From the NCBI GenBank assembly GCA_934154805.1, contig CAKPGM010000005.1, positions 9,188 to 73,187 of the forward strand: 64,000 bases of DNA. Direction: 5' to 3'. The notes beneath the pieces were generated by a model, which was not told the DNA's origin, did no database searches, and worked only from the letters and a program-made list of their open reading frames with translations. The translations under genes were made by a program, and so were the position numbers. Below, one piece after another: positions 5,779-59,378 of the stretch (position 1 is the first letter of the stretch; each line of letters starts with the position of its first letter). Origin of the DNA: an uncultured Clostridia bacterium (GTDB taxonomy: Bacteria > Bacillota > Clostridia > TANB77 > CAG-508).

Positions 5779-5951
5779 ATTAAATATGTTATTTAATAAA
5801 AATATTTAATCTTTCAAGCAATCTTAATTCTAAGTTTAGATCATTTTCGGTATTTTTTATGTTTACAATTATTTGTTTTAATCTATTGACTTTTTTCCTA
5901 CAGTTGTGCTATATATAAAATAGTTAGTTTTAATTAAATAACATATTTAAT
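5779..5951 (+). promoter_or_regulatory. Invertible promoter cassette 1, with the promoter facing away from the 4541..5749 gene (OFF)
   Basis: Perfect 19-bp inverted pair ATTAAATATGTTATTTAAT (5779-5797) / ATTAAATAACATATTTAAT (5933-5951). Internal promoter TTGACT (5886-5891), N18, TGcTATATA (5907-5915) lies on the + strand. Confidence 0.7.
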
Positions 5952-6013
5952 TAAAAAATTATTTCTTCATATGTATACTAAGCCAAAATTTTATATTTTG
6001 GTTTCTTTTTTAT

Positions 6014-6042
6014 TTGACAAAAGTCGACATTCATTGTACAAT
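6014..6042 (+). promoter_or_regulatory. Sigma-A type promoter of the 6074..6925 gene
   Basis: TTGACA (6014-6019), N17, TACAAT (6037-6042). Confidence 0.6.
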
Positions 6043-6073
6043 ATTGTCATATATTGAAAAAGGGGATAAAATA

Positions 6074-6925
6074 ATGTTTGGACACAGAAGTGATGGTAGG
6101 AAATTAAAAACTCTTCCTCCATTTTTTAGAGTAATTCCTAGCGTAATGCTAGAAAGATCAGATGCACAAGTTTATTTTAAGCAAGACATCTCTCTTAAGA
6201 CTATAGATGATTACATCGACAAAAAAGCTGCAGAAGGAACTAAATTTTCTTATATGAATATAATTTATGCAGCATTAGTTAGAATTTTAGCTGAAAGACC
6301 TCAGTTAAATAGGTTTGCTATGAATGGCACCTTATATGCTAGAAATCAAATTCTAGTTTCTCTAGCTATTAAAAAAAGTCTTTCTGACGAAGGTACTGAA
6401 ACTACTATTAAAATGCCTTTTACAGGAACTGAAAACATTTTCGAAATAAAAGAAAAACTTGATAATGTTATAGAAAATAATAAAGATACGGGTACAGTTA
6501 ATAGTACTGACCGTCTTGCAAAAGCTTTAAGTTTAGTATCTAATGGTACTTTAAGAAGAGCTATTAAATTCTTAAGTTTCTTAGATAGACATGGTATAAT
6601 GCCTAAGGCAGTAATAAATGCTAGTCCCTTTCATACTAGCTTGTTCTTAACAAATGTTGGTTCTTTAGGAATTGATAGTGTTTATCATCATTTATATAAT
6701 TTTGGAACTACTAGCTTATTTTTTGCTATGGGTAAAAAGAAAAAGAGCTTTATCTATGACGATGACGAAATACACGAAGAAAAGTGTATCACTATTGCAT
6801 TTGTTGGAGATGAAAGAATTTGTGACGGTTATTATTTTGCAAACTCATTTAAGTTACTAAGTAAATATTTAAGAAAACCCGAGTTGCTAGAAGAACACGC
6901 ACAAGTAAAAGAAGATATAAAATAA
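6074..6925 (+). CDS. 2-oxoacid dehydrogenase E2-type acyltransferase catalytic-domain protein (stand-alone)
   Basis: C-terminal GDERICDGYYFANSF aligns with the E2 DHRxxDG active-site motif. Start moved to the ATG at 6074, which has an AAAGGGG RBS. Confidence 0.55.
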   Translation: MFGHRSDGRKLKTLPPFFRVIPSVMLERSDAQVYFKQDISLKTIDDYIDKKAAEGTKFSYMNIIYAALVRILAERPQLNRFAMNGTLYARNQILVSLAIKKSLSDEGTETTIKMPFTGTENIFEIKEKLDNVIENNKDTGTVNSTDRLAKALSLVSNGTLRRAIKFLSFLDRHGIMPKAVINASPFHTSLFLTNVGSLGIDSVYHHLYNFGTTSLFFAMGKKKKSFIYDDDEIHEEKCITIAFVGDERICDGYYFANSFKLLSKYLRKPELLEEHAQVKEDIK

Positions 6926-6930
6926 TATTA

Positions 6931-6954
6931 AAACCCTGAGTTGTCTCAGGGTTT
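6931..6954. terminator. Bidirectional terminator hairpin between convergent genes
   Basis: AAACCCTGAG ttgt CTCAGGGTTT, flanked by A and T runs. Confidence 0.7.
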
Positions 6955-6963
6955 CATCATGTT

Positions 6964-56896: not shown

Positions 56897-56899
56897 TTG

Positions 56900-58012
56900 T
56901 TATACTCCTAATCTATATGCTGTACTTTCGCTGTTTCCATCTCCACTTACAACTTTTAGATTGCCTTTTAAGGTAAATACTGGACGAAGTGCGTTGATTG
57001 CAATATTACTGTCACTTCTGGTACAGTTGCTACTATTATGATCCAAAGCATTAATCAAAAGCGCCGTTCGAGCTATTAACCAGTTAAATTCACTTGCACC
57101 ATCAGTTCTTAAATAAAATGCCATTCCCTTCGTTCCTTCATATACGGGTCCTACTTCATTATATCTTGATGCAAACCAATAATGTTTAGTAGTAGTTAAA
57201 AGGTTTAAATCTTGTAATGTATTGTAATCTTGTACAAAATTGTCATCCTCATCTTTTAATCCTGTATTTGCTTGTACTACTTTATTACTAGATGTCTCTA
57301 ATTCAGTAACTACATCTTCTGGAAGTTCGGCAATTGATTTTGTTTCTCTGTCTTTATTTATCGGATTACTCCCAACACACCTTGCATCTACTGCATATTG
57401 ATCATTAAAGTACTCCATAGCTTTATTATTTAATACCTCTATAGCGTCATTATATAACTCTGTACTTTTATATCGATATTTATCATATTCACTAAAATCA
57501 TAATTTGTAAATATTTCATGTTTATATCTATCATCTTGAAACCATTTTAGTTGATCTATATCCGCAAATGGTATATACACATATTCTCCATCATCTTTTT
57601 TTATACAGTCATCTGTTATTATTTGTAGATTATATGGTGATTCTGCATCATATAATACTCTACAAGTAACTTCTCCTACTCCTTCTATTCCTGTATCATA
57701 TATAATATAATCTCCTGGTTTTAATGCTTTTAGCTCTTCATTATATTCTATTTTTCCTACTGCCGTTTCTATCCAATCAGATAATCCACTTAATTCTTTT
57801 TGTTCGTTTTCGCTTGCTTGTCCGTATTCTCTCCTAGCATCCTTTGATTTCTGTATTACTCCATTGTTATCCAATATTAGACTTATGCTTACTCCCGCCA
57901 ATATTAGAAGTACAACTATTGTAACAACTAATGCTATTAGTGTTATTCCGTTTCTATTATCTGTAAGTATAAACTTTTTTTCTCTTGTACCTTTCTCTTT
58001 ATTATTTCTCAT
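56900..58012 (-). CDS. Prepilin-like N-terminus surface protein, paralog B (intact)
   Basis: NRNG|ITLIALVVTIVVLLILAGVSISLILDNNGVI. Ends INALRPVFTLKGNLKVVSGDGNSESTAYRLGV. Its 5' 360 nt and 3' 94 nt are near-identical to the upstream paralog. Confidence 0.8.
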   Translation of the reverse strand: MRNNKEKGTREKKFILTDNRNGITLIALVVTIVVLLILAGVSISLILDNNGVIQKSKDARREYGQASENEQKELSGLSDWIETAVGKIEYNEELKALKPGDYIIYDTGIEGVGEVTCRVLYDAESPYNLQIITDDCIKKDDGEYVYIPFADIDQLKWFQDDRYKHEIFTNYDFSEYDKYRYKSTELYNDAIEVLNNKAMEYFNDQYAVDARCVGSNPINKDRETKSIAELPEDVVTELETSSNKVVQANTGLKDEDDNFVQDYNTLQDLNLLTTTKHYWFASRYNEVGPVYEGTKGMAFYLRTDGASEFNWLIARTALLINALDHNSSNCTRSDSNIAINALRPVFTLKGNLKVVSGDGNSESTAYRLGV

Positions 58013-58042
58013 AACTTTTTCTTATCTCCTTTTATATTACTA

Positions 58043-59126
58043 CTATATTCCTAATCTATATGCTGTACTTTCGCTGTTTCCATCTCCACTTACAATTTTT
58101 AGATTGCCTTTTAATGTAAATACTGGACGAAGTGCGTTGATTACTAAATATCCGAAAATAGTGTGTTGATACCACAGCTCCATTTTTATTACTAATATTG
58201 TACATTGTTTTGTCATAATCGTGGTAATTATAAGCATAACTTCCATCACTTCTCAAGAAAAATTGCAATTCATTAATATTTGCATAGAACGGACCTACTT
58301 CATTATATCTTGAAGCAAGCCAATAGTGTATATTAGTTGTTAAAAGATTTAAATTCTGTAATGTATTATAATCCATTTCATAATTATCATCTTCATTCTT
58401 TAATTTAGAATCATCTCCTGGCCTACGGTCAATTACATCTGTAGGAATTATGGCTGTTTCTTTGTTTTCTCTTGACTTATCTTCTGGTGAACTACCTACG
58501 CATCTTGCATCTGTAATATATTTATTATTATAAAATTTCATAGCTTCATTATTTAAAATGTTAATGGCATTATTGTATTCTTCATAAATTTTTTCTTCGC
58601 TATTATATTGATACCATTCACTAAAATCATAGTCTTTAAATTTTTCATCAAATTCTGTGTTAGTTCCTGGATTAGAACTATAATTTTTCAAAGATTCTGT
58701 TTTTCCAAATGGTATATACACATATTTACCATCTTTTTTTATACAGTCATCTGTTATTATTTGTAGATTATATGGTGATTCTGCATCATATAATACTCTA
58801 CAAGTAACTTCTCCTACTCCTTCTATTCCTGTATCATATATAATATAATCTCCTGGTTTTAATGCTTTTAGCTCTTCATTATATTCTATTTTTCCTACTG
58901 CCGTTTCTATCCAATCAGATAATCCACTTAATTCTTTTTGTTCGTTTTCGCTTGCTTGTCCGTATTCTCTCCTAGCATCCTTTGATTTCTGTATTACTCC
59001 ATTGTTATCCAATATTAGACTTATGCTTACTCCCGCCAATATTAGAAGTACAACTATTGTAACAACTAGCGCTATTAGTGTGATTCCGTTTCTGTTCTTC
59101 ATATTTTTTAATTTGTTATTTTTCAT
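58043..59126 (-). pseudogene. Prepilin-like N-terminus surface protein, paralog A (locus 4 cargo), with a frameshifted 3' end
   Basis: Frame A (58056..59126) loses the conserved C-terminus. Frame B (58043..58249) encodes ...GYLVINALRPVFTLKGNLKIVSGDGNSESTAYRLGI. Dropping one T from the T4 run (plus-strand A4 at 58155-58158) restores ...STHYFGYLVINALRPVF. Confidence 0.7.
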
Positions 59127-59160
59127 ATTTTTCTTTTGCTCCTTTCATTTTACGATTTCA

Positions 59161-59183
59161 TTATAAAACAATATGTTTTATAA
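59161..59183. repeat. Perfect 10-3-10 palindrome between inverton 4 and its gene
   Basis: TTATAAAACA ata TGTTTTATAA, identical to 16344-16366. Confidence 0.8.
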
Positions 59184-59204
59184 TTCAACCATTAATTTAA
59201 TTTT

Positions 59205-59378
59205 ATTAAATATATAATTTAATTAAAATTAACTATCTTAATTTATAGCATAGCTGTAAGAAAAAATCAATACTCGAATACAAAAATACAAACAAGGTTA
59301 AATTAATAAAAATTTTCAAAAACTATAAATATATACTAGTAGAGAGATTGAGGATTTTTATTAAATTATATATTTAAT
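59205..59378 (-). promoter_or_regulatory. Invertible promoter cassette 4, with the promoter facing into the 58043..59126 gene (ON)
   Basis: Perfect 19-bp inverted pair at 59205-59223 / 59360-59378. On the minus strand, -35 TTGATT is at 59265-59270 and -10 TATAAA at 59242-59247, spacer N17. Bases 59229-59272 are the exact reverse complement of 50153-50196. Confidence 0.75.

Follow-up and report, generated by a model that had tools for sequence, protein, structure and literature searches.

Families of invertible promoters that serve several loci of one genome are best known from Bacteroides and Akkermansia. Inversion is also carried out by enzymes outside the serine and tyrosine recombinase families, as in Moraxella, where Piv, an IS110-family DEDD enzyme, acts in pilin-gene inversion. 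In Clostridioides difficile, RecV-dependent switches (cwpV, flgB, cmrRST and others) have reportedly been described by Emerson in 2009, Anjuwon-Foster in 2017 and Sekulovic in 2018; to our knowledge those sites have no strongly conserved shared repeat and no internal promoter in common, and some of them work by way of terminators or by unknown RNA mechanisms. In the Mpi regulon of Bacteroides fragilis, invertible promoters control capsular polysaccharide and other surface loci (PMC193581; single-cell study, PMC10403206). PhaseFinderDC sorts the invertons of cultured hCom2 gut strains into groups by repeat homology, and one Clostridia-dominated group, number 139, is linked there to a tyrosine recombinase family (PMC11892184). 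Here we describe a family of short invertible cassettes, each with a predicted promoter, in a 64-kb stretch of DNA of 28.4% GC from an uncultured Clostridia bacterium (contig CAKPGM010000005.1). This whole stretch is called the window below.

A preliminary description of the window had reported four cassettes, each a 19-mer and its reverse complement enclosing a promoter. A count of the dyad ATTAAAT-N5-ATTTAAT over the whole window, allowing at most one mismatch, returns eight copies where 0.84 are expected, and none of 100 shuffles reached eight. The eight copies make four inverted pairs, which measure 173, 173, 173 and 174 bp end to end and confirm all four cassettes where they had been placed. 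They are referred to as loci 1 to 4, and locus R is a fifth cassette, about 3 kb past the right end of the window and about 8 kb from locus 4. A cassette is ON when its promoter points into the adjacent gene and OFF when it points away from that gene.

5779-5951: cassette 1, assembled OFF, interior of 135 nt
5779-5797 and 5933-5951: 19-mers of cassette 1, gene-proximal ATTAAAT-ATGTT-ATTTAAT and gene-distal with centre AACAT
16389-16561: cassette 2, assembled OFF, centre ATATA/TATAT, interior of 135 nt
50048-50220: cassette 3, assembled OFF, centre ATATA/TATAT
59205-59378: cassette 4, assembled ON, centre ATATA/TATAT, interior of 136 nt, inverted relative to cassettes 1-3
L048:1-700: locus R in the window's strain, OFF, centre ATGTT, gene-proximal 19-mer degenerate (ATTTATT)

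The claim that every 19-mer is a 7-5-7 dyad with constant arms holds for seven copies and fails for one, the right (gene-distal) 19-mer of cassette 3, where a single mismatch makes the outer arm ATTCAAT. Interiors of cassettes 1-3 align with one another directly, and that of cassette 4 aligns only as its reverse complement. Comparison was extended to 50 related loci from other public assemblies (L001-L050), in which orthologous loci were retrieved by exact-protein look-up, and to a catalogue of 32 cassette instances representing 17 distinct cassettes from several species. The related contigs come from human gut metagenomes, Hadza samples included. Interior length is 135-137 nt in every cassette despite the poor conservation of one half of it, and this constancy suggests a constraint on loop size or helical phasing.

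The cassettes invert. Four separate loci (1, 3, 4 and R) are polymorphic in orientation among near-identical sequences, as called from assembled contigs rather than read counts, and the break points are always confined to the 19-mer repeat. At locus R of a related species, seven complete assemblies divide into two OFF (L040, L043) and five ON (L041, L042, L044-L046); L040 and L042 agree exactly in both flanks, and their 137-nt interiors are exact reverse complements of each other. Locus 4, ON in the window, is ON also in L001 and L002/L048, and an OFF junction is present in L017, from the same sample as L048. Two scaffolds of ERZ28614901 show both states of this locus. Locus 4 is ON in scaffold_10536, whose overlap with the window is 100% identical; in scaffold_1347 the promoter-distal end is joined to the gene-proximal 19-mer, which is the OFF arrangement. 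The two have exactly 55 nt in common from the 19-mer on and part upstream of it, as is typical where an inversion creates a bubble in the assembly graph. Locus 3, OFF in the window, is ON in NODE_675 of ENA ERZ15609734, a contig that encodes an identical 635-aa protein; its first bases lie within the cassette, whose promoter end is attached to the gene-proximal 19-mer, and an ON junction is found in L016. Locus 1 is OFF in the window and in four complete related contigs (L018-L020, L023), and truncated contigs with a shared flank supply both an OFF junction (L021) and an ON junction (L022). Locus 2 appears OFF in both of the assemblies that show it, the window and L032. Contigs of many assemblies stop or start at a 19-mer edge (L003, L049, L050) or inside a cassette (L016, L017, L021, L022), and a Logan contig stops exactly at the inner edge of the locus 4 19-mer; such breaks would be expected of a graph bubble. 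The invertibility proposed in the preliminary description is thus borne out, the search of related genomes and metagenomes having found locus 1 ON, locus 3 ON and locus 4 OFF, so that these loci, like locus R, have been seen both ways. In a related metagenome-assembled genome, CAVFFR01, eight further cassette matches lie on eight contigs (about seven distinct loci), many of them at contig ends, and all seven that could be scored are OFF.

The same arms recur in 17 distinct cassettes. Covariation of the centre within a locus, reported earlier for the window, extends to all 32 catalogued instances: four centre alleles occur (ATATA, ATGTT, ACATT and ATGTA), partner sites are always exactly complementary in the centre, and differences between partner 19-mers are confined to positions 4, 16 and 17, in the arms. 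Centre position 1 is constant and positions 2-5 vary between alleles. Such concerted change fits a region that pairs, or becomes heteroduplex, in strand exchange, and the pattern of sites is consistent with a strand-exchange overlap that coincides exactly with the 5-nt centre. The centre alleles track cassette sub-lineages and may therefore mark lineages in addition to being heterospecific sites. Partner copies are perfectly identical only as far as the 19-mer edges, both in the four window cassettes and in most related loci. Outside the 19-mer the flanks differ, the gene-side base being T and the far one A; inside they differ as well, being A and T, and these inside flanks are exchanged in the flipped state, both in window cassette 4 as compared with cassettes 1-3 and in L022 (ON) as compared with L018 (OFF). 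The crossover is therefore within the 19-mer. Flanks at locus R are uninformative on this point, since the repeat there runs 5 nt into the interior.

One end of each interior holds a conserved block, TATTGAy(T)TTTTTCTTACAGyTrTGCTATAwaT..AGATAGTTArTTTTA. It reads as a -35 hexamer TTGAyT, a spacer of 17-18 nt and TG-n-TATAAA, TATAAG or TATATA, a predicted extended -10 promoter of sigma-A type that we designate P1. All four window cassettes have it, directed away from the gene at loci 1-3 and into the gene at locus 4, just as had been described. Among the 17 distinct cassettes the promoter half averages 84% identity and the other half 51%. P1 and the nearby terminators of the window are as follows.

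5886-5915, plus strand: P1 of cassette 1, TTGACT, 18-nt spacer, TG-c-TATATA, away from gene 4541-5749
16496-16524, plus strand: P1 of cassette 2, TTGATT, 17-nt spacer, TG-c-TATAAG
50155-50183, plus strand: P1 of cassette 3, TTGATT, 17-nt spacer, TG-c-TATAAA
59242-59270, minus strand: P1 of cassette 4, TTGATT, 17-nt spacer, TG-c-TATAAA, into gene 58056-59126
5980-6014, plus strand: hairpin and U-run directly downstream of P1 of cassette 1 in the OFF direction, -8.4 kcal/mol, z = -3.9
16568-16601, minus strand: terminator hairpin of the upstream gene 16605-17051, insulating cassette 2 from read-through
59389-59411, minus strand: terminator of the upstream gene 59420-60910, insulating cassette 4

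The hairpin at 5980-6014 is likely an insulating terminator; it sits exactly where the OFF-state transcripts of cassette 1 would run, and no other plus-strand gene lies upstream of it. P1 of loci 2, 4 and R is directed, in the OFF state, antisense into the upstream gene. The cassettes stand 29, 76, 30 and 78 nt upstream of the minus-strand open reading frames (ORFs) of loci 1 to 4, respectively, which agrees with the spacing first given. At loci 1 and 3, the 29-30 nt between cassette and start codon contain no other promoter-like site.

We consider it very probable that these cassettes make up a multi-locus phase-variation system based on active, site-specific promoter inversion by an enzyme acting in trans; our confidence in the inversion itself is higher than in this statement as a whole. 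A site-specific recombinase encoded elsewhere in the genome would bind the arms, pair sites 154-156 bp apart and exchange strands across the 5-nt centre. Judging from the sites, the enzyme most likely belongs to the tyrosine recombinases and uses an overlap of about 7 bp, because four of the five centre positions vary and yet match in partners, which is more than the 2-bp overlap of serine recombinases. In the ON state, transcripts from P1 would cross the gene-proximal 19-mer, continue through a short leader and enter the gene or operon. In the OFF state, the promoter would fire outward into a terminator or the 3' end of a neighbouring gene. Most cassettes would be OFF at any time, and each cell would thus display a small and changing subset of the surface proteins.

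Several observations weigh against this reading. Evidence at the level of assemblies cannot separate co-existing sub-strains from switching within a clone. The lack of mismatches between partner centres is not significant taken alone, about two being expected at the divergence rate of the arms. The -10 hexamer of P1 is without the conserved T at position 6, for which reason a consensus scan does not list P1. No recombinase was found by Pfam in about 50 window ORFs (essentially all of those of at least 80 aa), in accord with the earlier statement that the window holds no invertase, and phmmer searches with XerD and FimB of E. coli and Hin of Salmonella against all ORFs in 568 kb, the window plus the 50 related loci, gave none below E = 0.05. 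Finally, a fixed promoter-like element outside the cassette, P2, accompanies loci 2, 4 and R as well as most of the related loci and is missing at window loci 1 and 3; were P2 active as a promoter, the switch would modulate expression rather than gate it.

16343-16371, minus strand: P2 of locus 2, TTGATT, 17-nt spacer, TATAAT, on the gene side of the cassette and pointing into the gene
59160-59188, minus strand: P2 of locus 4, TTGAAT, 17-nt spacer with palindrome, TATAAT, between cassette and gene

P2 has the form TTGAwT-17 nt-TATAAT and is directed into the gene, at about 15-25 nt from the gene-proximal 19-mer. The palindrome TTATAAAAC-N5-GTTTTATAA makes up its spacer, folds as a leader hairpin and shows one compensatory arm change (L007). 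Several roles are conceivable for P2: a fixed promoter open to repression, a structure in the leader RNA, or an accessory site that the recombinase uses.

The neighbourhoods of the cassettes were inspected for candidate enzymes. A crude recombinase motif expression found no match, and no canonical recombinase gene was found beside any cassette, the neighbours being housekeeping genes or a gene for an Rpn-family nuclease. One marginal XerD match, in L012, turned out to be an Rpn-like protein. The Rpn-family PD-(D/E)XK nuclease gene (PDDEXK_2 plus HTH_Rpn_C) is the only recurrent neighbour that is not itself regulated by a cassette. The L012 protein matches PDDEXK_2 at E = 1.7e-41, the precomputed domains of the Rpn-like proteins are PF12784 and PF27070, and NCBI names the homologues 'Rpn family recombination-promoting nuclease/putative transposase'. 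The gene lies directly upstream of the gene-distal 19-mer and on the same strand, its stop codon 80-110 nt away and a hairpin between the two. It occurs in three distinct contexts, which are locus R (L048, L012, L040-L046), a position downstream of ClpC (L024/L025), and a cassette with centre ACATT (L005/L013), or at about 3 of the 11 cassette loci for which the distal neighbour is known.

L012:3448-4365: Rpn-like gene
L024:8604-9539: Rpn-like gene
L040:6001-6912: Rpn-like gene
L005:1355-1555: Rpn-like gene
L013:372-551: Rpn-like gene

The L012 and L024 genes, compared at full length, are 78% identical. In L048, locus R runs in the order 3' end of the Rpn-family gene, cassette, two DUF285 genes with the shared N-terminal anchor and an M23 peptidase gene, the last being window 62866-63789. 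Neither the window nor the loci retrieved by way of ThrRS or thioesterase showed an Rpn-like gene. A larger invertible or excisable unit was tested for by a search for a third 19-mer upstream of the Rpn genes, and none was found within three mismatches. Upstream regions of the Rpn genes share (A/G)TGTCGAA...ATACGATTTT...GACAA, which may be an operator.

A more distant relative (L026-L029, at about 9700-9790) has an Rpn-like gene, 38% identical, followed by a pilin-like gene and no cassette. What stands there instead is a small leader ORF that contains an (AG)n tract; in four samples n is 18, 13, 13 and 11 and the ORF has 27, 57, 57 and 20 codons, which looks like slipped-strand phase variation of the same gene family. 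Apparent switching of one gene family by cassettes and by a repeat tract suggests strong, convergent selection for phase variation of these proteins.

Two further observations concern the surroundings of the Rpn gene and of locus R. At 38748-42058 of the window, a gene for a TraG/TraD-like coupling protein (779 aa) adjoins a Replic_Relax-domain gene, and the pair may be the remnant of a conjugative element. The neighbouring block, made up of a polysaccharide flippase-like gene, HU and a cation ATPase, leads directly into the Rpn-cassette-DUF285 locus in a related species, and a rearrangement breakpoint therefore lies beside the Rpn gene.

Recurrence of this neighbour leads to the proposal that inversion is catalysed or enabled by the Rpn-family PD-(D/E)XK nuclease rather than by a serine or tyrosine recombinase, which we judge very unlikely. 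The 7-5-7 interrupted palindrome is of the kind that dimeric PD-(D/E)XK enzymes, SfiI and BglI among them, recognise. On this proposal a dimer would recognise ATTAAAT-N5-ATTTAAT and cut within N5 at both sites, and the cohesive ends would rejoin either way, which would explain the matching centres. Invertase candidates have been inferred from non-regulated neighbours by guilt by association (PMC11892184), and by that logic a gene standing beside cassettes in three contexts, with no canonical recombinase found near any of them, becomes a candidate invertase; Rpn proteins of E. coli, moreover, promote RecA-independent recombination (PMC5350276). Most cassettes, however, have no Rpn neighbour, including window loci 1-4 and most loci of the related genome. 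The 38%-identical gene before a cassette-less pilin-like gene means that the link may be to variable surface-protein loci and not to inversion, and no cassette or pilin-like gene stands beside the 84%-identical Rpn gene of L047. Those Rpn proteins that have been characterised are toxic endonucleases of poor specificity, with an antitoxin encoded inside the nuclease gene, and have been tied to phage defence (PMC10400941). As a hydrolytic nuclease is unable to reseal DNA, each flip would entail two chromosomal double-strand breaks, and the searchable literature yielded no link between PDDEXK or Rpn proteins and inversion, invertases or phase variation. The association may alternatively reflect a co-mobile module of Rpn gene, cassette and regulated gene, residence in a variable island, or antisense control of rpn by the OFF-state promoter. 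If the nuclease were the enzyme after all, the system would represent a third mechanistic class of programmed promoter inversion and would supply the first defined cellular DNA target for the very widespread and little-understood Rpn/PDDEXK_2 'putative transposase' family.

A different proposal accepts the flip and reverses the roles of the two promoters: P2, fixed in place, would be the main promoter, and the cassette would modulate it, for instance by read-through past a repressor on the P2 palindrome, by altering the DNA upstream or, in the reversed state, by transcription antisense to the neighbouring gene. P2 is nearer to consensus (10 of 12 matches) than P1, has been seen only beside cassettes (the window and 23 related loci), always at a set distance from the proximal 19-mer, and has a conserved spacer palindrome with its compensatory change; the antisense direction of the OFF-state promoter at loci 2, 4 and R also speaks for such a role. 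We nevertheless find this unlikely, because window loci 1 and 3, with no P2 and only 29-30 nt to the start codon, still belong to the flipping family, and locus 3 inverts, being found in both states, without P2. The P1 block, furthermore, is the most conserved part of the element, and promoter-like hexamers are common at 28% GC, where shuffled sequence gives about as many. Scarcely credible, in our view, is an account with no dedicated enzyme, in which occasional RecA-dependent recombination between short repeats, or old and fixed strain differences, would have produced the two orientations. Imperfect complementarity between partner repeats does reach 28-53 nt, no recombinase has been found, and all of the orientation evidence comes from assemblies; perfect identity between partner sites, however, amounts to only 19-24 bp. 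The dyad, the interior of 135-137 nt and the four matched centre alleles are conserved at 17 cassettes in several species, four loci are polymorphic among near-identical sequences (once with both junctions in one sample and flanks 100% identical), and the break points always fall inside the repeat. The controlled genes of the window are as follows.

4541-5749, minus strand: controlled gene 1, 402 aa, N-terminal anchor MLKNKKG-ITLIALVV..., start 29 nt from the 19-mer
14933-16234, minus strand: controlled gene 2, 433 aa counted from GTG 16234
48110-50017, minus strand: controlled gene 3, 635-aa BspA-type leucine-rich-repeat (LRR) protein, LRR_5 at E = 3e-151, shared N-terminal anchor
52803-59126, minus strand: probable five-gene operon of locus 4, intergenic gaps of 43, 3, 25 and 28 nt
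58056-59126 and 56900-58012, minus strand: two tandem anchor paralogues of the locus 4 operon
55298-56896: downstream gene of the locus 4 operon, weak PMT_2 match
53467-55272: downstream gene of the locus 4 operon, multi-pass membrane protein
52803-53438: downstream gene of the locus 4 operon

Four ORFs share the N-terminus ...(K/N/D)G-ITLIALVVTIVVLLIL(A/V)GV..., and their C-terminal parts are unrelated. The order of the shared region is a basic stretch, Gly, ITLIALVVTIVVLLILAGV... and then LDNNGII.KSK, and the family of this N-terminal module numbers more than 3000 clusters at E <= 1e-5. It had been called prepilin-like. The common N-terminus stands, and the prepilin signal falls below the Pfam threshold: N_methyl scores 17.8 and 19.2 bits against a cut-off of 21.2, in only two of the four proteins, NCBIfam has no match for such a signal in the controlled proteins, and the motif G-ITLIA has Ala rather than Glu at +5. 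For these reasons we write pilin-like rather than prepilin. In the Protein Data Bank the top match is to the N-terminus of a Geobacter pilin (E = 0.43), and a few members of the family pass PF07963. The controlled proteins are predicted to be N-terminally anchored, pilin-like surface proteins that lie outside the definition of a prepilin; the window has no prepilin peptidase gene and no pilus assembly genes. Pfam and NCBIfam assign no family to the proteins of gene 1, gene 2 and the first gene of locus 4, and the locus R genes encode DUF285 proteins. A formylglycine-generating-enzyme-like domain considered for the locus 2 protein was dropped, as it has no Pfam or NCBIfam match. The 5' portions of the two locus 4 paralogues, about 390 nt, are near-identical (96-98%) before the sequences diverge, and could be a substrate for recombination.

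The leader of locus 2 is broken. Translation from ATG 16312 would end at a stop after 18 codons, another ATG is in the wrong frame, and the region 16234-16312 is interrupted by stops and frameshifts in an arrangement found again in the Hadza contig L032; the gene may be a pseudogene or may be translated from an alternative GTG start. Contigs L030, L031, L034, L037 and L039 lack the entire module of locus 2, which comprises cassette, P2 and gene (about 1.9 kb, window 14629-16604). This module sits between the terminator of a 148-aa gene and the thrS leader, its left boundary is within 1-2 nt of the gene-distal 19-mer, and the hairpin of 16568-16601 abuts the empty site in L031. No recognisable hybrid 19-mer occurs at the empty site.

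14653-14834, minus strand: T-box leader upstream of thrS, 50.4 bits, E = 1.6e-9

This T-box is missed by a default Rfam scan because its score is below the gathering score of 93; Rfam has no family for the cassette or for the cassette leader. The genes behind the cassettes also vary. Cassette 1 precedes the 402-aa gene in the window and a 384-aa LRR_5 gene, with P2, in related strains (L018-L023). A homologue of the 402-aa gene stands behind a different cassette, with centre ACATT, in CAVFFR01 (L005), which suggests that genes are shuffled behind cassettes.

Beyond these assemblies, the cassette family is present in JGI metagenomes (three true loci) and in more ENA contigs. One match from the metagenome scan, L014, is a chance match and not a cassette locus. 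Viral contigs match neither the promoter pattern nor the paired-repeat pattern, and so give no sign of phage-borne cassettes. Exact-protein look-ups for the locus 1 gene and for pyrimidine nucleoside phosphorylase found no match, and in the searchable literature we found no description of the repeat, the promoter or the gene family. Strong Shine-Dalgarno sites, sigma-A-type promoters and the T-box leader before thrS are Clostridia-like signals; syntenic contigs carry SpoVG, SpoIIP, SASP and CtsR-McsAB-ClpC, and NCBI names homologues 'Clostridium sp.' or 'Clostridia bacterium'. The label 'Bacteroidaceae bacterium' attached to CAVFFR01 (L004-L011) was rejected as a probable mislabel, since its gene content and signals are Clostridia-like. 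At 29143-29161 of the window there is another 7-5-7 dyad, ATTAAAGCTTTGCTTTAAT, a GC-containing hairpin just upstream of a Zn-peptidase gene. In a related genome it occurs as two direct copies 165 bp apart (L006:1915 and 2080), and it stands outside the cassette family.

Taken together, the cassettes form a compact, stereotyped inverton family in an uncultured, low-GC, Clostridia-like lineage of the human gut, with evidence of flipping across samples. The controlled protein family is unstudied; its C-termini, which are BspA-type LRR, DUF285 or unknown, make its members plausible adhesins, phage receptors or immune targets. A 19-bp site in a cassette of about 174 bp, with centre variants that may be heterospecific, offers a substrate for finding a new recombinase and possibly a genetic tool, and the recurrent Rpn neighbour provides a concrete hypothesis for the function of the Rpn family.

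The Mpi regulon resembles this system in its dispersed short cassettes with one repeat consensus and one promoter consensus, in flipping in trans and control of the cell surface as predicted here, in a majority of cassettes OFF per cell, and in a gut commensal host. Mpi itself is a serine recombinase encoded beside one of its targets, whereas here none was found, 568 kb containing no resolvase- or Hin-like ORF. The 7-5-7 AT-only dyad and its four centre alleles also set the present sites apart, as does the sigma-A-type extended -10 promoter in place of a Bacteroides-type promoter, and each regulated unit is one gene or a small operon that encodes N-terminally anchored proteins with LRR, DUF285 or unknown domains, unlike the polysaccharide loci of Mpi. 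With fimS of E. coli, the switch of the tyrosine recombinases FimB and FimE, the cassettes have in common a short invertible element with a sigma-70 promoter, here a predicted one, for a surface-structure gene, and short repeats. In contrast, fimS is a single locus with adjacent recombinase genes, 9-bp repeats and a 314-bp element, and no recombinase gene is adjacent here. The serine recombinase and Bacteroides promoter of Mpi and the adjacent recombinase of fim are thus both absent from the sequence available, and we do not class the system with either type or with the other families compared here.

The RecV switches of C. difficile, another Firmicute, are said to depend likewise on one unlinked recombinase that serves several small elements upstream of surface and motility genes, with repeats of about 20 bp and elements of 150-300 bp. 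Unlike the C. difficile sites, the cassettes here are near-copies of one module. Piv is a precedent for inversion by an enzyme that is neither a serine nor a tyrosine recombinase, and so is relevant to the Rpn lead; it inverts coding segments and not a promoter, and no IS110-like gene was seen in the sequence examined. As for the PhaseFinderDC groups, the supplementary text of that report, in its accessible part, contains no ATTAAAT-type motif, and the non-regulated neighbour enriched here is an Rpn-family nuclease instead of an integrase. The groups agree with the present family in having shared repeat and promoter motifs and in being enriched beside surface genes (PMC11892184).

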